Virus record (IMG/VR): IMGVR_UViG_3300037245_000806
Location: 79,034 to 143,033 of that record
Length of the DNA stretch: 64,000 nucleotides
DNA from: a virus
Reading direction: 5' to 3' (one strand)
Shown here: positions 9,661-22,822 of the stretch, piece after piece
How positions within the stretch are numbered: position 1 is the first letter of the stretch
Layout: each line of letters begins with the position of its first letter
Notes under the pieces: model-generated
Database searches by the model: none
Told to the model about the DNA's origin: nothing
What the model saw: the letters and a program-made list of their open reading frames with translations, nothing else
Position numbers and translations under genes: made by a program

Positions 9661-11232
9661 CTAGACCTCGTAAATAAGGTCGATCACATCCGTGGGATCA
9701 AGCTGGAAGCCCGCCGCCCCGCCGCCCCAATAGAGCTTACTGGCACCACCCGCGATGGAACCTATTGTAGTCACCGTGCCGCCGCCGTCATCTGAAAAAA
9801 AGCAGAATGATGTGAGTTTCTCAGCAGTGTCTCGTGCGGGCTTGTACTCCACCCCGTTCACACGCACGATCACGTCATGCTCGGGCGTCCGCGTGATGGC
9901 TGCTGTTGCAGCAAGCTGGTACACACCCGTCGTCGTGAGCGCAGGGATGTCGTAGTCACCGTTGAGCGCGGGGGCCGGTACCGAGTTCCACCGCTGTCCG
10001 TCATGGCGGCGTATGTCACCAACATTGGCAGTCGGTGCCTCCTTGAAGGTCACCGCATTCGTTCCGGCAATGACAAGCTCGACAGGGACAGGGCCGGGAT
10101 AGATCGCTGAGTAGCAGTCCTTCCAGAAAGAGAAGGAACTCAGCGTACCGTCCACGATGATGTCCGCTGTTCCCCTGCGCCAGAATCCCACGCCACTCAA
10201 TACCAGCAGGTTGTTCACAGTTCCGACGAGCACTTCGATCTCGCCGTTTATCACGCCCTTCCCAAGCCCCGGCGTACCCCTGCCTGCGTACATGAAGAAT
10301 GCATTGCCAGACAAGCGGAACACTGTCCCTTGGAACGAACCTGCATACGCCGTGCAGTCGATGCCTGCGAAGCGGCCACCCGTAGTAATGTCCATCACAA
10401 TGTAACCGACCTCGCTGGTGAGCGTACATCTCTCAGGTGCTATCGTGACACCACCCGAAGCCAGCGGTGCATATGTGATCGTGTCCGAGTCCGGCGAGCC
10501 CTTCACGTTGCAATCGAAGAGATAGATGCGCTTGCTGTAGTCGCCCCCTGCAACGTGGATCGCTGGACCCGTTGTTGGCAGAACAGCAATCCCGCGCAGC
10601 GTGATGTCGTTGGCTATCCCCGACAGGTTGACCGTATACGTCAGCGTTCCGAGGATGCTAACTCGCTGCCCGGTCGGGTAAACATCCACCACGCCCGTGA
10701 ACACGTCCACAGCTTCGAGGTTGATCCACGGGCTCGGAATCGAAACGCTCTCAGCGTAATCCCCGTTCAGGATGCCGACGCGCGCTTGGATGTCCCTTGT
10801 CCAGCCCGCATCCGTGGCGGCTTGATCCACGGCGGATTGAATCGTCTGGAAGGGTGCCTTACCTACCGGCCCCACGAGGTAGTCGTAATCGAATAGCGGC
10901 GTGCGGTTGCGCCACACCGCTGCGCCGATTGAGTTGTCGAGGCACTGGAACACATTCTCAGTGGTAGTGTTCAGCCAGCCACCGCCCGCATTGAAGCCCG
11001 CGTTGGCATCATCGTTGACAGTCGGGTCGATGGCAGACACGTACACACCCGCGCCGCCTGACTCGGTCCATACTGCCGCGCCAATCGCAGCGTTCGTACA
11101 CATGAAGGCTTCGTCAGTTGCCGTGTTGATCCAGAACGTGAAATACCCGAAGCCCAAGCTGCTGTCATCCGTGGGCAGCGGGTCGCGGGTATCAGTCCAC
11201 AGCTTGATGCGTTGAACCGGACGCTCGATCAT
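9661..11232 (-). CDS. Fibre/spike-like structural protein
   Basis: Two N-terminal DPxxxDD...W.NT.T...F.C....GAAVW repeats, then FQTIQSAVDQA beta-helix start, then a C-terminal CFFSDDGG...AGFQLD module. Confidence 0.7.
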   Translation of the reverse strand: MIERPVQRIKLWTDTRDPLPTDDSSLGFGYFTFWINTATDEAFMCTNAAIGAAVWTESGGAGVYVSAIDPTVNDDANAGFNAGGGWLNTTTENVFQCLDNSIGAAVWRNRTPLFDYDYLVGPVGKAPFQTIQSAVDQAATDAGWTRDIQARVGILNGDYAESVSIPSPWINLEAVDVFTGVVDVYPTGQRVSILGTLTYTVNLSGIANDITLRGIAVLPTTGPAIHVAGGDYSKRIYLFDCNVKGSPDSDTITYAPLASGGVTIAPERCTLTSEVGYIVMDITTGGRFAGIDCTAYAGSFQGTVFRLSGNAFFMYAGRGTPGLGKGVINGEIEVLVGTVNNLLVLSGVGFWRRGTADIIVDGTLSSFSFWKDCYSAIYPGPVPVELVIAGTNAVTFKEAPTANVGDIRRHDGQRWNSVPAPALNGDYDIPALTTTGVYQLAATAAITRTPEHDVIVRVNGVEYKPARDTAEKLTSFCFFSDDGGGTVTTIGSIAGGASKLYWGGGAAGFQLDPTDVIDLIYEV

Positions 11233-11263
11233 AGGTCAGTCCCCACGTAGTCGTGACACAGTG

Positions 11264-14194
11264 TTACGCTCTGGCCGGTCCGATCTTCGACATGCCATCG
11301 TACCAGATGAGTCCCTTCTTGCCGAGCGCTTTTGCGGCACTCATGAGTTTCTTGAAGTGAATACCGGTGAACTCAGGGCGCTTGGCGATTGCGGATAGCT
11401 TGTAGTCGCCCCCCTCGGCAGTCTTCTCCATGAACGCGAGCAACGCCGCCTGCGCCTTGCCCTTCGCGGCTGCCTCCTGAATGCCCTCCGCGACCTTCTC
11501 GGCACTCACAGAGTCCGTGCCATACATGGAGTCGTCAGCGGGCGTGAGGTACCGCTGAACCTGTCGCTTCGTGAAGCGGTCCGTGTTGCCGGTCAGCGTG
11601 GTGAGCGCCACGATGTCTGGCAGGATGTACTGGACGAACACGCGGCCTGCACCGATCCGCACGCCAGTGCCGCCCTTCATCTCCTTGTTCAGGATCGCAT
11701 TGCCCTTGTAGTTGTCGTTGTCATCGATCACGAGCCCGAGCTTCGTGACAAGCTTGTCATTGGACCCGGCGACACCCTCGGCAATGCCCTTCTTCCAGAG
11801 GTCGCAGATATCATCCTGCTCGATCTTCCCGCGCACCAGCTGGCAGGCATCGGGGAGGACCACAGACGAGCAAGTTCCGCAGCGCTTGTCGCCGTCCTTG
11901 TCAGTCTGCGAATGGCGGTAGTTCACTTCCTCCTTGGGCTTCCGGTCCACCGCTTTGTTGCGGGTGGGGGCGGCTGCCTCATCGACGGGCTCCAAGACTT
12001 TCTCACCCACGTCCTTCGAGGTCATTGAAACGCGCCAACCCTTGCCATTCTTCTTTCGCCACTTACGCATCAACCTCGCAGAGCCGCGCTTGACCACAAT
12101 ACCCGCAGGGTCCACAAGCACATAGCCCACCATGGCTTCCTGTAGTTTGATGATATTGGCAATGCCTTTCCCCGCCGGAAGCGAGCGCTGTGACGCCGGG
12201 GTGACACCAAGCTCCTTCTTCAGCGCAGCCCGGAACGATGGACTCTTCATGGCGTCAGCAAAGGACACGCTGGCGAAGCCACCACTGAGCCTGACCTTCC
12301 CGCCGTACTTCTTGGCGAGCGCGCGAAGTGACTTCGTGAACGCACTGTCGGTCGCCTCATCGAGCTTGACGCGTGTGGTATTGAAGCCCGCGCCCTTGAC
12401 TGCTCGAATGATGCGACTCACTGAGGCCACTGCTTCTGCTGCCGTCGCAGGCTTACGCCGTAGTGTTGCCATGAGTTTCTTCGCCCCCGTACCAATTGCC
12501 TTGAGCACCTTCACGAGCGTTGCGTCCGGTCGCTTGTCATCCACCGCGCGAATCGCATACGCCTTGATCTTATGCTTCCCCTTCGGACCGAAGTCAACAA
12601 GATACTCAGGATCAACGGTAGTGTCCTTCGCGACCAGTGACACAATGTTGCCCCGGAGGCTCGCAACCTTGACCTTCTGGCCGGGCTTGAAGAAGCTCTC
12701 CTCGTCGATGGATTCGCGCAGTGCTCTATGGGGCTCATCCGCGAGGCGATACTTCTGACCCTTGAGCGTGAACCAATGCTTCTTGCCGTGCGACACCATC
12801 ACGCCCTTGAGTTGCTCATCCGACACAGCTTCAGCAACCCCCAGCTGAACGTAAACGCGGTAGACGTGCGAGCGGAAGCTGCTGTCCTCCTCGATGTCGT
12901 CCAACGCGAGGTAAATGCGCTTGGCTGCCTGCGTGTTCAGGGCGATACGGTAGTTGGCTCCCGCCTTCTTCGCCTCGCCTATCGCTTTGACGCCAGCCCG
13001 ATCCAAGGCATCCTGCGGGTCGTCCACTTCGACGATCTTGTAACGCAACTCCTCGAACAGCTTCTTCGATACGACAATGTGCCGGGGCAGCTTGTACACT
13101 TCATCGATGGACTCGCGCGCGGACTTGAGTTCCTTGTACTCACTCCACCAACCGTCCAACGTCATGGCGTCCACTTGCGAGGTCATGACGCTCGCCGTGT
13201 ACCATCCCGACGCACCCCCGCCAATGAAGTAGTAGTAACCCTTACCCTTTACCAGCTTCTCCTTGACGCCCTTCGCCTTGAGCATCTTGTTGACCGTGCC
13301 GAGGGTCACCTTGCCCTCATCGATGGATTCATTCTTCCTCTTGAGCCGCACCTCGTCAGCCTTCACGGTGATCTCATTCGGGGTCTGCGTCTTCGTGCCG
13401 GGTGCGACACGTGCGTAGTCCTTTGGATCGATCAGGACCACGAGTGTCGCTGGACCCTTCGGATAGAAGACATTGACATCGCGCTTGATGATCTTGCCGG
13501 GGACCGGAGGCTTGACTGCGATGGGCTTGTACCCGCGCTTCCATCCGAACCTGCGGACGACCACGATCTCATCGCCCACCTTGTACGTTGGGCCTTTGTA
13601 AATGCTCGGTATGAAGATGCGCTTCTCATCGATGGCAGCCGCCTCGAACACTTTCTTCGGACCGCAGTAGTCACATACACCACATTGCGCGGTGCCACGC
13701 CACTGAGTATCCGGGTCGTCCTTGGGGCCGAACCTGATGTGCTCCGTCGAACCGCACTCGGGGCAGAGCACCTCACTGATATCTTCAGTGGCAAGCAAGG
13801 TACCGCTAAGCGGAACCGTGAAGAATCCCTGCTTGCCAGAGCCGCTCGTCCCCGAAGGCCCGTGGCCGCTGTAGTGCATATGCACCTGAGCACCAGAGCG
13901 AGCGTACTTCGGGAAATACTTGGCGATGATCTTCTGCGTCTTCTCAGGGCTGTGATACAGGCGCGCGACCGTGAAGTCCTTCGCGTCCTGTGACTTCCCC
14001 TTGGTGGCGTCATCGAACTTCAGGTACCGGGCCTTCATGAACGTGTCGGAGTATGCGATGCGCCGTAGTTTGCTGGCCATCTCAGTGGTGACGAGCACCT
14101 CGTACACGCGCAGCTGCTTGCCGACCACCTCGATGGCAAGGTCGCCCCGATAGACTTGGCCCGCACGCTTCTCAGCTTCTAGGATGGCTGGCAT
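11264..14194 (-). CDS. Modular polyprotein B (~976 aa), putative internal head protein precursor
   Basis: Start reassigned to ATG 14194 (MPAILEA, RBS GAAGGGG). Lys-rich modules are separated by ESIDEG, ESIDEV, ESIDEE, AAIDEK, KLDEA, EPVDEA, IQEA etc. Includes Zn-ribbon, SH3-like, HiPIP-like and wHTH modules. Confidence 0.75.
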   Translation of the reverse strand: MPAILEAEKRAGQVYRGDLAIEVVGKQLRVYEVLVTTEMASKLRRIAYSDTFMKARYLKFDDATKGKSQDAKDFTVARLYHSPEKTQKIIAKYFPKYARSGAQVHMHYSGHGPSGTSGSGKQGFFTVPLSGTLLATEDISEVLCPECGSTEHIRFGPKDDPDTQWRGTAQCGVCDYCGPKKVFEAAAIDEKRIFIPSIYKGPTYKVGDEIVVVRRFGWKRGYKPIAVKPPVPGKIIKRDVNVFYPKGPATLVVLIDPKDYARVAPGTKTQTPNEITVKADEVRLKRKNESIDEGKVTLGTVNKMLKAKGVKEKLVKGKGYYYFIGGGASGWYTASVMTSQVDAMTLDGWWSEYKELKSARESIDEVYKLPRHIVVSKKLFEELRYKIVEVDDPQDALDRAGVKAIGEAKKAGANYRIALNTQAAKRIYLALDDIEEDSSFRSHVYRVYVQLGVAEAVSDEQLKGVMVSHGKKHWFTLKGQKYRLADEPHRALRESIDEESFFKPGQKVKVASLRGNIVSLVAKDTTVDPEYLVDFGPKGKHKIKAYAIRAVDDKRPDATLVKVLKAIGTGAKKLMATLRRKPATAAEAVASVSRIIRAVKGAGFNTTRVKLDEATDSAFTKSLRALAKKYGGKVRLSGGFASVSFADAMKSPSFRAALKKELGVTPASQRSLPAGKGIANIIKLQEAMVGYVLVDPAGIVVKRGSARLMRKWRKKNGKGWRVSMTSKDVGEKVLEPVDEAAAPTRNKAVDRKPKEEVNYRHSQTDKDGDKRCGTCSSVVLPDACQLVRGKIEQDDICDLWKKGIAEGVAGSNDKLVTKLGLVIDDNDNYKGNAILNKEMKGGTGVRIGAGRVFVQYILPDIVALTTLTGNTDRFTKRQVQRYLTPADDSMYGTDSVSAEKVAEGIQEAAAKGKAQAALLAFMEKTAEGGDYKLSAIAKRPEFTGIHFKKLMSAAKALGKKGLIWYDGMSKIGPARA

Positions 14195-14204
14195 GACTGC
14201 CCCT

Positions 14205-14345
14205 TCAGATGAGGTCTTCGATGGAATCGAGCACGCGCTCTGTATCCGGCGACAGCATGATCTCCATGACGACCAATGGTAGTGCAATGACGAGCACAAC
14301 GAAAGCGCGAAGACTGAAGTTCAGCCGTGGCAGATCAGGATACAT
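14205..14345 (-). CDS. 46-aa single-TM protein
   Basis: Read by hand: MYPDLPRLNFSLRAFVVLVIALPLVVMEIMLSPDTERVLDSIEDLI; the ATG overlaps the TAA of the upstream gene and the ORF fills the gap. Confidence 0.5.
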   Translation of the reverse strand: MYPDLPRLNFSLRAFVVLVIALPLVVMEIMLSPDTERVLDSIEDLI

Positions 14346-14653
14346 TAGAGCGCCCCCTTTGGCGTCGGTCCACACCACTTGATCTCACCCTTGGTCAGGA
14401 AGAAATGGCTCTTGCATTCGCAGGTTCGCTGTAGTGATGGTGTCAATGTCACGCGCTTGTCCTCGGCGACGGTCAAGTCCCAGCGTGGACCCTTGCCGGG
14501 CAGCACTGGAATGTTCACAGCGCGCCCGCACCCGCAGGGGCACACAAACGCAACACACCAAATGCAATCGTCCTCGCCACAGACATAGACGACGCCCGGC
14601 TTCATGTCTTGGAGATCAGGCCGATAGTGTGTACGCTCAGCGAGCCAGATCAT
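14345..14653 (-). CDS. DUF6527-family protein
   Basis: FVCPCGCG...RWDL...VTLTPSL...CKSHFFLTKGEIKWC signature. Confidence 0.8.
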   Translation of the reverse strand: MIWLAERTHYRPDLQDMKPGVVYVCGEDDCIWCVAFVCPCGCGRAVNIPVLPGKGPRWDLTVAEDKRVTLTPSLQRTCECKSHFFLTKGEIKWCGPTPKGAL

Positions 14654-14952
14654 GCGCCCTCCCGTGGAAGCTCACCGTGCTGGACCTTCTTCTCGAACAG
14701 CGCCGGGTTGCGGAAGAAGAGGCGCTTGGCCTCCTCGATCTTGTTGGGGTCCGTAGTGTTCCAGAGGAGGTGGGCCTTCGCTTGGTACACCTCGACCTCG
14801 ACGTGTCGCCGACCCTTACCATCTTCGTCGGCGTCCCACTCGGTGATGTACAGGAAGTAATGGCCATCCTGCCACTCCTGCACACTGCCCTTGCGCCTCG
14901 GGGTGAACGGCATGGACTCGGGGATCGTAGTCTCCACGTTGGCCTCCTGCAT
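14650..14952 (-). CDS. Hypothetical protein
   Basis: 100-aa ORF with ATGA coupling to the downstream gene; codon usage like its neighbours. Confidence 0.6.
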   Translation of the reverse strand: MQEANVETTIPESMPFTPRRKGSVQEWQDGHYFLYITEWDADEDGKGRRHVEVEVYQAKAHLLWNTTDPNKIEEAKRLFFRNPALFEKKVQHGELPREGA

Positions 14953-15051
14953 GCAGCGGCTTCAGGCACCCCCTATGGTCCCAGCGTACCGCGATTCTGA
15001 AGGCGCAGAAGCCGGGGAGGGAAGGAGGTGCCGGGAGCGGCTGAAAGCTCC

Positions 15052-15522
15052 CTAACCCACTCGGGCAGCAGGGGTCACCCTTCGTGCTCTCGCGGCCATG
15101 GTATTATCGTTGTCGTCGCTGCGGGCTCCGTATCTAGAGCGCGTCAGGACAAGGCCCGTGTCCACAGGAAGGTCGCCGATGATCGTGCTCTCCGCTTGGT
15201 AGTCTTTAGGCGGATGTTTCAGCACTGTCCGTGACTCGTTGTCAGCATGGATGTCGGTGCCGTGTTGAGACTCACTGTTGGGCTCGGCATCTGGCGCACT
15301 GACCTGCGGAAGTTTCAGCGAGTAAACCCCGGTCGCTTGGACCTCGGCGTCGTAGTGCGCGGGTACCATGTTGTCCGTCACGTCCATCGTGCAGCCCGCG
15401 TGGAACGGGGCGTCGGCAAGAAGCACCGTGCCCTGCTCAACCACAGGAGCTGTGTTCGACGTGCCCGCAACGAACAGTGCGAGCATTACTGCGATGAGAA
15501 TCCCTGCCATGCACATGCGCAT
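15052..15522 (-). CDS. Hypothetical secreted/membrane-anchored protein
   Basis: N-terminal signal-peptide-like MRMCMAGILIAVMLALFVAG; strong RBS AGGAGGAG. Confidence 0.6.
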   Translation of the reverse strand: MRMCMAGILIAVMLALFVAGTSNTAPVVEQGTVLLADAPFHAGCTMDVTDNMVPAHYDAEVQATGVYSLKLPQVSAPDAEPNSESQHGTDIHADNESRTVLKHPPKDYQAESTIIGDLPVDTGLVLTRSRYGARSDDNDNTMAARARRVTPAARVG

Positions 15523-15551
15523 TCGACTCCTCCTTTCAAGAGGTAAACCAC

Positions 15552-18500
15552 TTACTCGTCAAGTGCCGGGTCGGCTGCCTCGATCTCCTCTTCCGTCGCA
15601 GGTCTGACCTCTCCCGTTGGTGACACAACGTCACTGCCGCACTCGACGCACTTCGCGACGGTAGTCAGATTGAGGAATGCAATCGATGCACTTGAGCAAT
15701 GCTCGCACCGAACCTCAGCCATGATGGGGCCGACGTCCGCGCACTCCTCTTTGCCTAGCCCGAGCATGTTCTTGAACACTGCGGTGACAAGCTTGTAGTA
15801 ACGCGAGCCATCACCACCCTCATCCTTGGACTTCTTGATATCCGGGTACTGCTTGTTGACCGCAGCCTGCGCCTTGCCCCACAGCTTGATCGCTTCATTC
15901 GCTGTCTTGCCCGCCTTGCGTGCGAGCGCCTTCATGTGCGTGGGCTCTTTCACCTTGCCCGCGCCGGGATAGGTCGTGGAAAGCTGGGCTTCGGTCACGC
16001 CCTCGACGGCTTCACCCAACGCCTTGAGCACCTTCGTGAGATGCCACAGGCCGATCTTGATATTGGACGCGGAGACGAACGTGTCACGTAGTGTTTTCCC
16101 GTCACCCTTGGCCGCAGCATCGAACTTATTCACGAGCGCGACAGGGAGCGACCTCGTGAACGTGAACACGAGACGACCCTTACTGTCCACGACCCACTTG
16201 TCCCACGCGACGTTGTTCTTCTTGAGCCACCCGATCATCTTGTTGATGACCTTCTTGGCAGCCGGGTGCTTGTCCAAGTCGTCCTGCGTGTAGCCCTTGT
16301 CAGCTTCGTCCACATCTTCCTTGACCGTGAAGCCCTTGCCCTTCTTGAGGCCGTGCTTGGCGAGCGCTGGCAGCAGGTACTTCATGTGCTTCTGCTGGAC
16401 GATCACGTAGTGGGTTCCGTCCGTGTCCTTCCGCATCCCGCTCGCTGTCTGCGAACTGATGACCGCAGCGATGTCGTCGGCCTTCTGCTTCGAGAGCTTG
16501 CCGAACTCCAAGGTCACCGCAGCCTCATCGAGGTCTTCCGTCTTGATATCCTTCGCACGATCCGCCAGCCCCTTGGCACCCTTGAGCGTAGGGTGAGAGC
16601 CGATGTCCTTGATGACCTTCTTGCCCTTCAGGATGACAACCCCGAACTGGTCCTGATGCGGCACCGGCTTGGGGTATCGCAGGAACACAACGCCGCCGCC
16701 TGTCTTCGCCCGGTACACGATCTTCTTGCCGGGGGCGTAGTCCTCTTCGAGGTCTTCGGACTCGGCAACCTTCTTGATCACCGTGGCAGCCTTACGTGCG
16801 TTGTCGAACTTCTGGCCCTTCGCTTCGAGTTCGCCCTGCTTGCCACCCACCCACGCCTTGCCCGTCCACACCTCGCGCGGATTGGCAATCGACCCCGACT
16901 TCCGGCGCACGAGAATAACTTCAGCGTACCCGGTCGCGGAAAGCTTGAGCGTCATGTACTCGTAGTCGCCCTTGGTGAACGAGACTTCGTCGAGGCCCGC
17001 CGCCTCAAGCTCGTCGCCCCCATCGAAGTCCTCGTCGGTCTTCTTCTTGCTGATCTTATCAATGGTGACGATCTTGCCGCCGGGGAACTCAGTGAGCATT
17101 ATCCGCGCGAGCTTCATGCTCTTCATGTAGAGGGGTTTGCCCGAACCCTTTTGAACGACGGCGTGCGTGTACCCGCGTGCCTGCAAGATGGCGGCGAGGC
17201 GCTTCTCTTGCACGTCCACAACTTCGTCGAGGTCCACGTCTTCCTTGACCACCTTGACGTCTGCCTTCAGGAACTTGCGCCCGTCTGCCACGACGACAAT
17301 GTACTTGCCCTCGTCACGTAGTTTCGTCGGGTCCGCAACGCCCTCGCCCTTCTTCCAGACGCCGCCCTTCGATCCGTCCTTGTTGACCGGGACGGTGCCC
17401 CTCGGGTTAGAGATCGAGAAGGTGCCCTTGAAGGTCTTCGCCTCATCGAGGTCTTCCTTGAGCGCCGGGTCATTCAGGTTCACGACAATCGTGTTGCCAC
17501 GGAACTGAATCGACTTCTTGTTGGTCTCCGGGTACTCGATGCTGAACGTGCGCATGAAACTGTCCCGGCGGTCCTCGCTTGGTAGTGTGATGACTGCGGT
17601 CTTACCGGAGACCTTCAGCTTGCCCTTGTCGTCCTTCGCCATGATCTTCAGGGAGGCGAGCGCAGCCTCATCGACAGACTCGTGGGCTTTCTTCTTGCGC
17701 CACTTCCAGCCCTTGTTCGCCACCTCGTTGGACTTGTTGAGCTTGGCAGCCTCCTTGGGAGTCATGGACTTGAAGACCTTCTTGACGCCGGTCTTCCTGA
17801 CCGGGTTGTTCTGCGAGTCAACGAGTACGTAGTCTGCTTCGTCGATGCCTTCCCTCGGACCCGTCTTCTTGGCCTTCGCAATCGGGACAAGGACTTCCTC
17901 GTCGCCCTTCTTGGGGCGGGGGTTCGTCACCCTGACCTTGAGCGTGTTGTTGACATCGCTTATCACCGCACCCTGCATCAGCTTTCCATTGGGCGCAGTC
18001 CACGTGATGCGCTGGCCCTTCTTGAACACCTCGTCAAGGCCCTCGGTGGGATTCTTGTTGTAGTCGGCCCCGAAGACATACCCGTACTTCTTGAGCGCCT
18101 TGAGCATCTCCTTGTCCTTGAGGGCTTTCTTGTCACCGCGTCCAGCGGGCGTCATGGACAATACCGACAGGCCCATCAACCGCGCGGTCACGACGGCAAC
18201 CTGCTCGTCGCCCTTAAACACGGGGCGCACGATCACCGAAAACCGATTCGGATACTTCCCTGCCTTATCCGTGTGGAAGCCGCCGAGCCCGTAGACGTCC
18301 CCGAGCGTCATCACGATGTGTCGGCCAACCTTGCGCGTAAGCTTCCCGTCACTGCCGGGGGTTGGCCCCTTCTCATCGAGGTCGTCATCGGACTCGTTCT
18401 TCTTCTTGTCGGCCACCCCGCGAGCGTAGCCTTTCTTGTATGCCTTGATCCGGGCGCGTGACCAATTCTTCTTGTCGAACTCCTTCTTCTCCTGCTCGCC

Positions 18501-21500
18501 CTTCGTCGCCGCGATGTGCCCGTGCATGAATGAAGCATGAGCCGCATCACCACGGGTGCCACTGCGACCGTACTCCTCGATGGCCGCTGCTTCCGCGAGG
18601 TCTTCGTAGTCATCCCCATCAATGGACTCTGCAACATAGGTCGCATTGAGGGCCTGAGCCACAACGTCTTTACCGGACCCCTTCTTGGTGAGCTTCACGT
18701 GACGATACATCTGAAGGAGCAGTAGTCCCGCTGAGACCTCAGGCTCCGAGAGCCCCGTGGCCTTCACGATGGCCTTGCCAGTGATAGGCTTCTTCGCCTT
18801 CTTCACCGCAGCGAGCATCGCCTTCTCACGCTTGTCCAGCGGCGCGCGCTCATCGAGGTCGTCCTCGGAGACAGTCTTCTTCTTGCACTTCACGCAGTAC
18901 CCTGTCGCGGCGAGCACCTTGCTGCCGCAGCCCGGACACTTGACGGTCCCCGTAGTGGCCTTCTCATCGAGCATGGCTTCGGAGTGCAGGAGCAAGTCCT
19001 CCGCATCCTCATCCGCGATGTGCCCCATGTCCTCGCCGTCAATCACGAGCGAGTAGGTATCGTCGTCCTCCGTAACGATCTCGATCTCGCACTCCTTGAC
19101 CTTGCGGTCAAGCTGGATCATGTGACCAAGCTTGGCCTCGTCATCGCGGAGCGGCCTGACCCACGTGCCCTTGCCCTTCACCTTCCACCCGGCGGCGGTC
19201 ATACCGAGCGCGCGTGAAACAGCGCGGAGAATCGTCTTGATCTGGTTGTCGCCCTCAGCTGCCGGGGCACCCAACGTGACCTGCGCAGTCTTGCCAACAA
19301 CCTTGCGCGTTGCGATGGGGTTGTCGGCACCGCGACGAACTGCAACAAGGGCGTCACCCTTGATGCCGATGGTCCTCGTAGTACGCCCCTTGCCATCGCC
19401 GCCGCGCACGAAGTCCGAGATAACTATCTTGGCCTTCATCGGGATGCTATAGCCCTTCACCTCATCGACTGACTCGATGATCGAGAGCCCCTCTGCCTTG
19501 GCTGCCTTGCGGATTGCGTTGACCCATGTCTGACTCACGTTGCCCTGCGGATCACCGAGCACAATCCGGTTGCCCTTGCGCGTAGCGAGCGGGTCTTTGC
19601 GACCGCGCGAAGGTCCGGTGAGGATGTCGCCCTCGATGTCAAGGTTCTTCGCCTTGACGCCCGAGCCATCCTTGCCCTGCACGAAGGCCTTGATCATCTT
19701 GCGGTCGCCCGCCTTCAGCTTGTAGCCCATGGACTCCCGTAGTCGTGACACAGTGTTATCATCTTCGCCGAGGGCGAGGAGACGCATGCGACAGGCGCTT
19801 TCGACCGCTACGTCCCGAGTCGCTATAAACTCGTGGCTTCTCCCACTTTTGATGCCTTCAAACAGGCTCGTAACACAACGTTCGCCCTCCACAACAGTAC
19901 CATGCTCCTCAACGTACTCCTGAAAGAAGGCTTCAACCATGACGTCAAACTCGTTGGGAAGGTCCGCATAGAATTCAACCATCTTCTCAAGAAGGCTATG
20001 GACTTCCTGTAGTGTGATCGGAACCCTGTACGCCTGACCGCCAACCTGTACCAACGTCTTCCCATCATCCGTACCATCCCTGCGTGCGGTCCATGAAAGG
20101 AACTTGGACTGAAAGCCCTCCTCCCCCTCCATGTACAGCGGGCCTTGCTGTAGTTCAGGCTCGAAGCCCACGCACAGTACCTCACCGGGGTGGATCATCT
20201 TGTTCTCGCCTGAGCCCACCACGGGAGCGCCTATAAGATTGTGCGAACCCTCGGGGTCATCCTTACCCTTGTCTGACTCACTGACATCCTTGCTGAGGCT
20301 CTTGAGCATACGCAGGTCTGTTGCCACCGAAGCGTTCTTCTTCTTCTTGCCTGACTTGATATCCTTCCGCAGCTGCCTGAGGGCTTTCTTCATCCCGTCC
20401 GCTGTGGCCCGCACTCCATAGCCCTTGGCGTACTGCTTCAGTTCCCTGCTGTGACCGTAGGCTTCGTCGATACCTTCGTTGGGGGCCTTCGCGCTGAACT
20501 TCTTGACTTCCTTCTTGAGCACGTGTGTCTGGACTCCCGGTTCGAGTTCCACCTTGTACCCGGTCGCGGTCTTCTTGATAACCGTGACGGTCTTGCCCTT
20601 GGCGTACTTCTTGCCCTTGAGCTTCAGGTCCGTAGTGAGCATGTACGCCTCGTCGATAGACTCGAAGGGCTTCGTGAGTTTCGTCATGCGCGCATACGGG
20701 AGCTTGTCCCAATGCGCGTGGGCAGCCTTGACCACTTCAGCCTTCTCCTTCGGATCGCCGTAGTCACCGAAGGACATCGCAGCTTTCTTCCACCCTCTCG
20801 GGCTCAGCTTCTTCAGGCGCTTCTGAATCTTCTTGACCGTCTTCACCTCGTTGTCGGCGAAGCTCAGGATCATGAAGGCGACAAGGTCTTTGATGGTACC
20901 CTTGTCTGCTTCGTCGAGGTCTTCCACTTTGGGGAACCACAGCCCGCCGTTGCCATACCACCGCACGCCATTGGCATCCTCAACACAGAGGATACTGTTC
21001 TCGGCATCCTCATTGAGCGTGGAGTCGTGCAGGTCGGGGTACAGGAACTGGAACGCATTGTCAGTGACCCCACCCTCTTCGCAGATGGCTACGTAGTCTG
21101 CCTTGGTCTCGGGGCGCAGGCCCTCGGTCTTCATCGCGGGGTCTTCCTCTTTGGACTTCGCGGTTGCCTTGGCGAAGCCCGCACGCTTCGGGAAGCATTC
21201 GATGATCGTGAAGTCGCTGACCTGACCGGACTCGAAGTCGGTATCGCCAGCGGTGACGAGAGTGTCCAGCTTGCAGAAACCCCTCACACCTTCGTTGAGC
21301 TTCTGAAGAGGCTCGGCAGCAATCTTGCCTTGGAAGATCGCGAGGAACGTAGTGTCCGTTCCTTCGAGTTGTGTCTCAAGGAACTGCGTGATGAGGTCGC
21401 CGCACTTCTCCATGAGGTACGCCTCGAAGAGGATCGCGGCCATGCCCGTGTCGGTGTTGCTGAAGGCCGGGCTCTTGTCGGTGAAGTTCTTGGCGAACTC

Positions 21501-21797
21501 GCGGGCGCTCTGCTTCTCGTCCTGAAACCCGGAGGCGACTTCGAGGATGAGGTCAATGTACTCGTCGCGGTGTGAGATGCTGCCGGTGATGGTAGCGGGG
21601 AGGTCGAGGCTCGACCGGAGCTTGGCAACCTTCTTATAGAATCCGCTGGCCTTCTTCTGGCGAACCGATGCCTTCTGCTTGGCACTCAGGCGCTTGGGCT
21701 TCCTGAACTTCATGAGCCTGCGGCGCTTCTTGGCCTTGATGCCCTGTAGTCTGCGCTGGGAGGAAGACTGCCGACGAACGGTTGCCTCAAATACCAT
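15552..21797 (-). CDS. Modular polyprotein A (2081 aa), putative prohead-core/internal protein precursor
   Basis: About 18 acidic linkers (EDLDEA x3, EGIDEA x2, ESIDEA, ESVDEA, ESVDEV, EGLDEV, EDVDEA, DDLDER, DDLDEK...) separate basic 35-110 aa modules; RBS GAGGGG; sigma70-like promoter upstream. Confidence 0.8.
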   Translation of the reverse strand: MVFEATVRRQSSSQRRLQGIKAKKRRRLMKFRKPKRLSAKQKASVRQKKASGFYKKVAKLRSSLDLPATITGSISHRDEYIDLILEVASGFQDEKQSAREFAKNFTDKSPAFSNTDTGMAAILFEAYLMEKCGDLITQFLETQLEGTDTTFLAIFQGKIAAEPLQKLNEGVRGFCKLDTLVTAGDTDFESGQVSDFTIIECFPKRAGFAKATAKSKEEDPAMKTEGLRPETKADYVAICEEGGVTDNAFQFLYPDLHDSTLNEDAENSILCVEDANGVRWYGNGGLWFPKVEDLDEADKGTIKDLVAFMILSFADNEVKTVKKIQKRLKKLSPRGWKKAAMSFGDYGDPKEKAEVVKAAHAHWDKLPYARMTKLTKPFESIDEAYMLTTDLKLKGKKYAKGKTVTVIKKTATGYKVELEPGVQTHVLKKEVKKFSAKAPNEGIDEAYGHSRELKQYAKGYGVRATADGMKKALRQLRKDIKSGKKKKNASVATDLRMLKSLSKDVSESDKGKDDPEGSHNLIGAPVVGSGENKMIHPGEVLCVGFEPELQQGPLYMEGEEGFQSKFLSWTARRDGTDDGKTLVQVGGQAYRVPITLQEVHSLLEKMVEFYADLPNEFDVMVEAFFQEYVEEHGTVVEGERCVTSLFEGIKSGRSHEFIATRDVAVESACRMRLLALGEDDNTVSRLRESMGYKLKAGDRKMIKAFVQGKDGSGVKAKNLDIEGDILTGPSRGRKDPLATRKGNRIVLGDPQGNVSQTWVNAIRKAAKAEGLSIIESVDEVKGYSIPMKAKIVISDFVRGGDGKGRTTRTIGIKGDALVAVRRGADNPIATRKVVGKTAQVTLGAPAAEGDNQIKTILRAVSRALGMTAAGWKVKGKGTWVRPLRDDEAKLGHMIQLDRKVKECEIEIVTEDDDTYSLVIDGEDMGHIADEDAEDLLLHSEAMLDEKATTGTVKCPGCGSKVLAATGYCVKCKKKTVSEDDLDERAPLDKREKAMLAAVKKAKKPITGKAIVKATGLSEPEVSAGLLLLQMYRHVKLTKKGSGKDVVAQALNATYVAESIDGDDYEDLAEAAAIEEYGRSGTRGDAAHASFMHGHIAATKGEQEKKEFDKKNWSRARIKAYKKGYARGVADKKKNESDDDLDEKGPTPGSDGKLTRKVGRHIVMTLGDVYGLGGFHTDKAGKYPNRFSVIVRPVFKGDEQVAVVTARLMGLSVLSMTPAGRGDKKALKDKEMLKALKKYGYVFGADYNKNPTEGLDEVFKKGQRITWTAPNGKLMQGAVISDVNNTLKVRVTNPRPKKGDEEVLVPIAKAKKTGPREGIDEADYVLVDSQNNPVRKTGVKKVFKSMTPKEAAKLNKSNEVANKGWKWRKKKAHESVDEAALASLKIMAKDDKGKLKVSGKTAVITLPSEDRRDSFMRTFSIEYPETNKKSIQFRGNTIVVNLNDPALKEDLDEAKTFKGTFSISNPRGTVPVNKDGSKGGVWKKGEGVADPTKLRDEGKYIVVVADGRKFLKADVKVVKEDVDLDEVVDVQEKRLAAILQARGYTHAVVQKGSGKPLYMKSMKLARIMLTEFPGGKIVTIDKISKKKTDEDFDGGDELEAAGLDEVSFTKGDYEYMTLKLSATGYAEVILVRRKSGSIANPREVWTGKAWVGGKQGELEAKGQKFDNARKAATVIKKVAESEDLEEDYAPGKKIVYRAKTGGGVVFLRYPKPVPHQDQFGVVILKGKKVIKDIGSHPTLKGAKGLADRAKDIKTEDLDEAAVTLEFGKLSKQKADDIAAVISSQTASGMRKDTDGTHYVIVQQKHMKYLLPALAKHGLKKGKGFTVKEDVDEADKGYTQDDLDKHPAAKKVINKMIGWLKKNNVAWDKWVVDSKGRLVFTFTRSLPVALVNKFDAAAKGDGKTLRDTFVSASNIKIGLWHLTKVLKALGEAVEGVTEAQLSTTYPGAGKVKEPTHMKALARKAGKTANEAIKLWGKAQAAVNKQYPDIKKSKDEGGDGSRYYKLVTAVFKNMLGLGKEECADVGPIMAEVRCEHCSSASIAFLNLTTVAKCVECGSDVVSPTGEVRPATEEEIEAADPALDE

Positions 21798-21840
21798 CGT
21801 TTACCCCTCTCGAAGCCTGTAGTGTCTTCACGAGGGATCA

Positions 21841-21869
21841 AGGATAGGTGAGCCTTAACACAGTGTCAA
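21841..21869 (-). promoter_or_regulatory. Sigma70-like promoter of polyprotein A, overlapped by the 13-bp palindrome
   Basis: Minus strand TTGACA-17 bp-TATCCT; palindrome at 21856-21868. Confidence 0.65.
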
Positions 21870-22378
21870 GCGACATGTTGCCACGATTTGCGCGTGACAA
21901 CGGCACTGATTGCACCGAGACTTACAAGGTATTCCGCAGCAAGATCAGCGTATGTTACGCCACCAACGGCATAGAGCGCCCTGATTTCTTTGACGTCACA
22001 CGCGGTCAACTTGGAGCCATAATTCTTTTCACCCACGTTGTTTTGCAAGACAATGGCGCTATGCCTTTGGTTGTCTTCGGGTGTCGCGTACTCAAGGTTC
22101 ACCAAGCGACAGTCAGCCTTAATGCCGTTTATGTGGTTCACGTGGTAGCCCCAAGGGCATGGGCCGATGAACGCGGCGGCTACCTGTTGATGCACCTGAA
22201 CTGTTTCAGCCATCCCGTCCACACTGAAGTCCAGATGCAAATAACCAGTGCTCAGATTAACATGCGTCTTTAGAATACCGCCGTTGGTCCTCTTGCGCGC
22301 GATACTGAAAATCCGACCTAAATCTGAAATACGGTAGTAGCCCACGTACCCTACAACGTCCTCCCAGAGTTCGACCAA
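21866..22378 (-). mobile_element. NUMOD4-HNH homing endonuclease
   Basis: ELWEDVVGYVGYYRISDLGRI (NUMOD4), VHQQVAAAFIG...VNHINGIKADCRLVNLEY (HNH) and a C-terminal HTH; visibly lower GC than the flanks. Confidence 0.9.
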
Positions 22379-22396
22379 GTGACGCCTCCCTTGTTG

Positions 22397-22822
22397 CTAT
22401 CCCCGAGCTTGAACGATGCCGCCCGGTCCACCCCGCAGCTTACCACCCTCGCCGAGCATGCTGCCGGGGGCGGTCTGAATCTTGTCCTCCCTCAGCTGGT
22501 CCACCACGGCCTGCTTCAAGCCGTCACGGAGTTCCTTGGATGCCTTGGCCATCGCGGCGTCGTACTCCTTCTCGATCTCCGCGTAAGCTTCCTCCACGGT
22601 AGTGGCGGTCGGCAACGGTATGTCGAACTTCTTCGTCGCCTTGCCGCCCTCGAACTCGGCCTTGACCATCGCGCGGACGCTGAAGCGCACCCAACCCTCA
22701 GGAGCCTTACCGGAGATGATGATGCTCTCGTCGAGGACGCGCTTGTTGTTGTCGCGGTACGACACCTTGCGCTCGATGAACGTGACATCCTTGTGCTCGT
22801 ACTTCGGTGCTTTCGCAGACAT
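22397..22822 (-). CDS. Hypothetical protein
   Basis: 141-aa ORF with RBS AAAGGAAG. Confidence 0.65.
   Translation of the reverse strand: MSAKAPKYEHKDVTFIERKVSYRDNNKRVLDESIIISGKAPEGWVRFSVRAMVKAEFEGGKATKKFDIPLPTATTVEEAYAEIEKEYDAAMAKASKELRDGLKQAVVDQLREDKIQTAPGSMLGEGGKLRGGPGGIVQARG

Follow-up and report, generated by a model that had tools for sequence, protein, structure and literature searches.

What are the products of two giant open reading frames (ORFs) in which one mostly unrelated module follows another, each closed by the same short acidic motif, and where would these products act? The two ORFs, here called A and B, lie in the IMG/VR virus record IMGVR_UViG_3300037245_000806 (143,033 bp, 98% complete), of which we analyzed the 64,000 nucleotides at bases 79034-143033 (the window; positions are those of the window unless genome or L-numbered coordinates are given). 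A preliminary description of the window had proposed that A and B are head-core polyproteins that are cut during capsid maturation and packaged with the DNA. Both ORFs were confirmed, and both lie on the minus strand:

15552..21797, minus strand: ORF A, open frame and translation of a 2081-amino-acid (aa) polyprotein with ~17 predicted segments, a 6.2-kb gene
11264..14194, minus strand: ORF B, translation of a 976-aa polyprotein with ~8 predicted segments

The longest frame of B opens at TTG 14299. The ribosome-binding site of ATG 14194 and the N-termini of the B-like proteins in two relatives (L014 and L015), which coincide with that of B read from this ATG, indicate that B is 976 aa long. 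Reading directly from the genomes the joint motif with its statistics, the protein family, its modularity and the presence of a prohead protease with the context of its sites, we consider that A and B are probably head-core cargo polyproteins, cut by the prohead protease into ~25 small basic proteins.

The repeated joint and the prohead protease

Exploring the two translations, we found that the repeated acidic joint is real. The motif [ILV]-D-E occurs 16 times in A, where 2.2 +/- 1.4 copies are expected, and six times in B, where 0.7 are expected, numbers that none of 1000 shuffles reached. The longer form [ED]-x-[ILV]-D-E occurs 12 times in A versus 0.30 expected (largest count 4 in 5000 shuffles) and four times in B versus 0.08 expected. 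With the weaker sites added (G-V-T-E-A in A; K-L-Q-E-A and G-I-Q-E-A in B), the totals come near the ~18 joints in A and ~10 in B that were first described. The joint motif is almost confined to A and B within the 143-kb genome; of 47 copies of [ILV]-D-E-[AVKEGR] in candidate ORFs that total ~45,500 aa, these two proteins hold 21. Across the family of relatives described below, 111 sites give the consensus E (76) - S/D (80) - L/I/V - D - E - A (52). Synonymous codons differ freely among the joints, indicating that conservation resides in the peptide; a repeat at the DNA level was rejected for the same reason. A terminates exactly at A-L-D-E, which is followed by the stop codon. Named by the position of the P1 Glu, the joints are:

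20907..20924, minus strand: joint A296, E-D-L-D-E-A
20646-20663, minus strand: joint A383
20460-20477, minus strand: joint A445
19458-19475, minus strand: joint A779
18960-18977, minus strand: joint A945
18846-18863, minus strand: joint A983
18369-18386, minus strand: joint A1142
18027-18044, minus strand: joint A1256
17835-17852, minus strand: joint A1320
17664-17681, minus strand: joint A1377
17439-17456, minus strand: joint A1452
17220-17237, minus strand: joint A1525
16983-17000, minus strand: joint A1604
16521-16538, minus strand: joint A1758
16302-16319, minus strand: joint A1831
15987-16004, minus strand: weaker A site 1936
15555-15569, minus strand: joint A2081
13622..13639, minus strand: joint B190, A-A-I-D-E-K
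13313-13330, minus strand: joint B293
13097-13114, minus strand: joint B365
12698-12715, minus strand: joint B498
12353-12370, minus strand: joint B613
12134-12151, minus strand: weaker B site 686
11975-11992, minus strand: joint B739
11471-11488, minus strand: weaker B site 907

The proposal that these joints are cut in the head presupposed a head protease of the T4 gp21 type, and the genome was found to encode one. A single match to Peptidase_S77 (PF03420, the T4 gp21 family) was obtained, with an E-value of 2.4e-19 and 65.9 bits, above the Pfam cut-off:

genome 41759-43378 (L004:5760-7379), outside the window, minus strand: protease ORF, 539 aa, directly upstream of the capsid protein gene

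The protein aligns to the T4 gp21 structure 5JBL and keeps both the His motif (G-H-L-E-H-P) and the Ser motif (S-S-R-G). The C-terminal half of the ORF is acidic, helical, coiled-coil and scaffold-like; the protease, whose domain spans residues ~65-279, and the scaffold-like part are thus fused in one 539-aa ORF, and the same arrangement is seen in five relatives. At the N-terminus of the protease the T4 sequence Q-L-L-I-E/T aligns with Q-L-L-I-E/S-I-D-E/S (/, cut position), and the T4 gp21 site L-I-E-9 fits the gp21 cleavage logo (PMC9026906). The protease/scaffold boundary reads E-G-L-D-E/S, with the predicted cut after the last Glu; in four of the five relatives this boundary carries L-D-E, L-S-E or L-T-E, and in the fifth (L011) L-D-S, without the Glu. 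In the capsid protein F-V-I-D-E/V is found at residue 81, just ahead of the conserved core, i.e. at the propeptide junction, and relatives carry I-D-E, I-N-E or L-D-E at this site. Outside A and B, the joint motif marks three expected substrates of the genome's own gp21-type protease. The complete relative G001 has L-T-E at the scaffold junction and carries a 1112-aa polyprotein in which most of the joints read [IL]-T-E-A/G; joints with Thr at P2 are seen in P0009-type phages, too.

Modules of A and B and their exchange among relatives

Both chains begin with a short leader, as the preliminary description had noted, and are built of conserved domains and of modules set between the joints:

21786..21797, minus strand: A leader M-V-F-E, then Ala, a putative cleavage site
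20910..21797, minus strand: conserved N-terminal domain of A, residues 1-296, aligned across 7 relatives with 34-63% identity
19698..20165, minus strand: conserved middle module of A, ~residues 545-700, common to P0003-P0008, P0012 and P0017
18849..18962, minus strand: module A 946-983, a 38-aa zinc ribbon that matches many small zinc-ribbon proteins
17838..18029, minus strand: module A 1257-1320, a small SH3-like beta-barrel in the AlphaFold model
15555..15989, minus strand: conserved C-terminal module of A, residues 1937-2081, a helical unit plus a zinc ribbon
14177..14194, minus strand: B leader M-P-A-I-L-E, then Ala, a putative cleavage site
13625..14194, minus strand: conserved N-terminal domain of B, residues 1-190, kept in the B-like proteins of L014 and L015
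13100..13315, minus strand: module B 294-365, equal to the full-length stand-alone phage protein family phrog_9154
11267..11473, minus strand: conserved C-terminal module of B, residues 908-976, seen also in P0007, P0008, L014b and L015b

The B-like proteins of L014 and L015 keep the leader of B in the form M/V-P-A-I-A-E, and all A-like relatives open with a leader of 4-8 residues ending in x-x-E, followed by the conserved T-V-R-R-Q. We dropped the leader pattern as a genome-wide marker of head cargo, since it is too common (13/150 ORFs). The N-terminal domain of A is a candidate core-anchoring or targeting domain; its AlphaFold model is moderate (predicted local distance difference test, pLDDT, 63) and gave no convincing fold match in PDB or BFVD, and a feature search of the ESM Atlas scored <=0.80 and was uninformative. 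The C-terminal module of B is also terminal in P0007, L014b and L015b, and internal in P0008.

The segments between joints span 38-334 aa, with a median of 83 in A and ~120 in B, a wider range than the 35-110 aa first described. They had also been called rich in Lys and Arg and poor in Glu. The first half of this description stands: the modules are Lys-rich and net basic (Lys plus Arg 17.8% versus 12.2% in the rest of the proteome), with an isoelectric point (pI) of 9-10.5 for most of them. Glu is not depleted, making up 6.0% of A and 4.5% of B outside the joints versus 6.2% of the rest of the proteome. Among themselves the modules show no relationship, as had been thought, save for one paralogous pair in A. 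This pair, the only clear internal duplication in A (window 19458-20000, residues ~691-867), consists of two adjacent ~85-aa units of 30% identity that straddle the E-S-V-D-E joint at residue 779.

Some modules match full-length small proteins, which bears out the suggestion that they exist as stand-alone phage proteins. Residues 296-359 of B cover profile positions 2-66 of the 70 of phrog_9154 (E-value 1e-14), and this segment lies between two E-S-I-D-E joints. Modules of the relative P0007 span phrog_9437 end to end, and the C-terminal helical unit of A aligns with numerous stand-alone proteins (77-160 aa), beginning near residue 6 of the latter. The zinc ribbon that follows this unit has a weak S27e-like match in Pfam. 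Searching A against Pfam and PHROGs gave a weak zinc-ribbon match only, as did the sequence search of PDB, and B had no match in Pfam.

To the question of whether the joints might lie inside folded domains, a model of A 1257-1758 gives an answer. In this AlphaFold model, for which the alignment was shallow, the confident blocks (model residues 1-55, 122-190 and 350-425) are bounded by joints (model residues 64, 121, 196 and 348), suggesting that joints fall between confident domains and not within them, in line with the original proposal. Module A 1257-1320 was modeled with a pLDDT of ~90 and matches Tudor and KOW barrels with a probability of 1.0 and template modelling scores of 0.6-0.8 depending on the target, the E-values being >0.01. 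The same module recurs elsewhere in the chain in P0003, P0007 and P0013.

Domains of the effector type can be recognized in relatives only, and not in A or B. The last module of P0008, which follows an L-Q-E-A junction, is an S-adenosylmethionine (SAM) lyase (PF23780, 43 bits versus a cut-off of 28); the classical anti-restriction protein of T3 has this activity. Cdc48-like AAA+ modules are found in P0008 and L002b, and a Zeta-toxin domain in the polyprotein adjoining P0008.

Sequence searches with BLAST and phmmer recovered A-like proteins of 1112-3246 aa from other metagenomic phage contigs (P0003-P0009 and the G001 protein) as well as P0012, P0013 and P0017, which have A's conserved modules; the large proteins P0015, P0019 and P0021-P0023 match single modules only. 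A ~290-aa N-terminal domain is common to all N-terminally complete A-like sequences, and the middle and C-terminal modules are present in most of them, while the remaining parts differ. The family thus carries conserved terminal and middle modules, with variable modules between repeated Glu-ending joints, of which P0007 has 28 in 3246 aa. Clean indels of 61-315 aa distinguish close relatives (L014b versus L015b, P0003 versus P0004, A versus P0003), both edges lying <=6 residues from a joint, as expected if modules are gained and lost at joints, which had been the earlier suggestion. Common modules occupy different positions in different relatives. Together, relatives gain, lose and reorder modules while the joints stay.

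Against 50,697 phage records neither A nor B had a megablast or tblastn match, and for B no homologue of similar length was found in a set of 5.8 billion proteins. Comparison of the modules with the small ORFs of the window and of the relatives' loci revealed no single-module gene within these loci; the matches were a polyprotein that in one relative is spread over three ORFs, and a 378-aa protein of several modules. In the relative with P0005 (L016:10001-15544) the A-like gene lies in three overlapping ORFs, and its C-terminal modules continue in other frames, owing to a frameshift or else to faulty assembly. The portal gene of the relative with P0004 (L015:1-1277) carries an intein (precomputed Pfam hits to Intein_splicing and Portal_T4). 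In G001, a few kb from the polyprotein, a 405-aa ORF (L013:7695-8912, minus strand) resembles by eye a TnpB of the IS200/IS605 type.

The locus and its transcription

Nearly all genes of the window are on the minus strand. It encodes a T4-type portal and large terminase and a T4-type replication and recombination set (SbcC-like, Dda-like, UvsX-like and gp32-like proteins, a family-B polymerase and a DnaB-like helicase). Portal and capsid protein share only ~24-30% identity with those of the nearest isolates, and on this comparison the phage is an uncultured, deep-branching member of the T4 superfamily. The A/B locus is flanked by the portal/terminase block and by tail-fibre-like genes, and synteny is kept in relatives: thymidylate genes, small ORFs, the A-like gene and further small ORFs are followed by a second, B-like polyprotein (755-2490 aa) and then by the tail-fibre-like genes.

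A promoter-like sequence was found 5' of A, the sole such site on the minus strand within 11000-22500:

21841..21869, minus strand: sigma-70-like promoter 5' of A (TTGACA, 17-nt spacer, TATCCT)

Given that this site is the only one, A, the three small ORFs and B may form one transcription unit that starts upstream of A. The head genes of this genome are likewise preceded by sigma-70-like sequences. A 13-bp palindrome, TRACACWRTGTYA, has 21 matches counting both strands, i.e. 13 distinct sites, versus 0 expected; one copy (21856-21868) overlaps the -35 of the sigma-70-like site 5' of A, another (11254-11266) overlaps the stop codon of B, and a third (19746-19758) sits within A. Directly 5' of A lies an HNH homing-type endonuclease gene (phrog_59, E-value 1e-37; window 21866-22378, minus strand), and one of the three small ORFs that separate A and B encodes a DUF6527 protein (E-value 2.4e-22; window 14345-14653, minus strand). 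A third giant ORF, of 2589 aa, adjoins the head genes outside the window (genome 45554-53323, L004:9555-17324, minus strand). It carries a NUDIX domain (E-value 1.8e-10) and almost no joints, and may be a classical head protein of the polyvalent type.

Known systems, rival explanations and meaning

T4 packages ~1000 copies of basic internal proteins; these are in part ejected, and the anti-restriction factor IPI* is one of them (PMC3012670, PMC9026906). A and B share several features with IPI, IPII, IPIII and Alt: they belong to a T4-like phage with a gp21-type protease, their predicted products are small and basic, a short N-terminal leader, putatively of the targeting kind, ends in hydrophobic-x-Glu with a predicted cut after the Glu, and their content differs strongly among relatives (PMC3012670, PMC9026906). 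The acidic scaffold is separate, being the C-terminal half of the protease ORF. The T4 internal proteins come from separate genes; each has a targeting leader to itself and is cut once at the N-terminus (Alt at the C-terminus as well), whereas A and B hold ~17 and ~8 units per chain behind one leader and are punctuated by a repeated joint of six residues. No similarity of A or B to IPI, IPII, IPIII or Alt was found with Pfam and PHROG or by tblastn against the 50,697 phage records.

The closest concept in the literature is that of the polyvalent protein (PMC5512222), in which many unrelated domains are likewise joined in one polypeptide of a mobile element (~17 and ~8 segments here). Polyvalent proteins are delivered with the invading DNA; release of their domains by proteolysis was proposed and the analogy with viral polyproteins drawn (Iyer et al. 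2017, PMC5512222). What defines them is an embedded autopeptidase, such as a zincin-like metallopeptidase, together with a known set of enzymatic domains (PMC5512222). A Pfam search of A and B revealed no embedded peptidase and none of these enzymatic domains, and in their relatives SAM lyase and AAA+ domains were found but no peptidase. A and B differ also in being punctuated by a repeated site for a protease that would act in trans. A further parallel is offered by the inner-body and ejection proteins of phiKZ, 201phi2-1 and SPN3US, many of which a protease related to gp21 cleaves behind Glu, frequently in several places, and whose paralogue numbers vary widely between phages (PMC5694885, PMC9026906). 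These are, however, separate genes with long propeptides and an S/A-x-E motif, and no long chain of unrelated modules with identical linkers has been described for them. The Pfam search gave no match of A or B to PF12699, the phiKZ-type inner-body family. In African swine fever virus (pp220/pp62) and adenovirus, core precursors are cleaved by a protease that the virus itself encodes, at recurring copies of a short consensus, and several core proteins in fixed ratios result. Lineage, protease class and proteins are unrelated to those described here and the products are few, so that the analogy is one of mechanism only. In the literature searched, the coverage of which was incomplete, we met with no phage polyprotein in which prohead-protease sites recur as punctuation.

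We propose that each of A and B would be translated as one chain and would enter the assembling prohead via its conserved terminal domains (the N-terminal ones, residues 1-296 in A and 1-190 in B), the short leaders perhaps acting like the T4 capsid-targeting sequence. The gp21-type prohead protease would then cleave behind the final Glu of E-[SDG]-[ILV]-D-E, with A, V or G as the next residue, freeing ~17 small folded proteins from A and ~8 from B, mostly of 4-17 kDa and with a pI of 9-10.5, each of which would retain a short acidic tail. These pieces would remain with the packaged DNA in equimolar amounts, where they plausibly neutralise DNA charge, and at least some of them may be carried into the host along with the DNA, to act there in takeover or against defences. 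The joints would permit a module to be inserted, deleted or relocated without harm to its neighbours, so that the gene would behave as an exchangeable cassette.

A number of points weigh against this proposal. The evidence on A and B is wholly genomic, and from it we infer cleavage, packaging, ejection and module functions. Covariation between joints and protease sites is partial, being seen in the single case of G001. The generic T4 rule [LI]-x-E is matched 33 times in A versus 17 expected, leaving the number and exact set of products uncertain. The hydrophobic-x-Glu leaders, although present as first described, follow a pattern that is not specific, for it fits 13 of 150 ORFs. Only 3 of the 6 modules in the AlphaFold model of A 1257-1758 are confident, and no module of A or B matched a known effector or DNA-binding family in Pfam, PHROGs or the PDB sequence search. 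The capsid protein of the nearest isolates is only ~28% identical and the phage is uncultured. The T4 late promoter motif TATAAATA was not found anywhere in the whole genome, and the timing of expression can therefore not be read from promoters. The preliminary interpretation is thus supported in part: the protease, the stand-alone modules, the exchange and the model speak for it, whereas no module of A or B matches a known effector.

How do other explanations fare? The chains may stay uncut, the joints being conserved hinges or docking peptides of giant proteins whose many domains work as one piece, be it as an internal body, as a DNA-organising chain or as an ejected megaprotein like the N4 virion RNA polymerase. 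Some giant phage proteins, the N4 enzyme among them, are indeed packaged unprocessed (PMC5512222), the joints sit in low-confidence, flexible-looking regions of the AlphaFold model, and the cleavage of A and B is itself only our inference. Yet a plain hinge needs no six-residue consensus kept across relatives with wholly different modules, nor is it expected to match the junction sites of capsid protein, protease and scaffold; A, moreover, ends exactly on a P1 Glu, and modules also occur as stand-alone proteins. We therefore regard uncut chains as unlikely. It is also rather unlikely that the head protease does cut A and B but that they serve in assembly alone, as core or scaffold filler or in size determination, their fragments being expelled or idle in the next host. 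The terminal and middle domains of A are conserved in the way of structural parts, but the modules are folded, basic and of 4-17 kDa, unlike the acidic scaffold encoded beside the protease, they are turned over and shuffled at a rate unusual for structural parts, and relatives insert enzymes (SAM lyase, AAA+) in the same frame.

Cutting could instead take place outside the capsid, by some protease that turns the polyproteins into many small cytoplasmic proteins in equal amounts, never to be packaged. The sole promoter-like site is of the sigma-70 type, and there is no T4 late promoter to time expression, which would suit such a role; the head genes of this phage also stand behind sigma-70-like sequences, however, and T4-type prohead proteases are active inside the prohead (PMC9026906). 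Furthermore, the only protease identified is the prohead protease, whose own junctions carry the motif (PF03420 alone was searched genome-wide, and most ORFs were not scanned for other protease families). We consider this explanation very unlikely. All three alternatives are weakened by the length and conservation of the joint and by its match to the capsid-protein and protease junctions, and further by the basic, folded modules and the enzymes inserted in relatives.

Taking A and B as head-core cargo cut by the prohead protease, we suggest, as a possibility held tentatively, that deep-branching T4-like phages in general rely on linker-punctuated polyproteins to bring dozens of small proteins from a single gene into the capsid and to exchange them, the recognition peptide of the head protease serving both as release signal and as neutral junction where anti-defence and takeover modules, such as the SAM lyase of a relative, are swapped among phages. 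If A is cut and its products are packaged, ~17 different proteins of the head interior would come from a single 6.2-kb gene, in fixed ratios, and the head protease would release cargo besides maturing the capsid. The T4 picture of internal proteins and capsid targeting would then be extended to a cassette design, which suggests a natural format for packing many foreign proteins in T4-type capsids. For metagenomes a search rule follows, i.e. a joint that is repeated and equals the phage's own capsid-maturation site would point to capsid cargo and candidate anti-defence proteins. Such a design, if true, would help to explain how uncultured T4-like phages carry and exchange many small proteins of unknown function.

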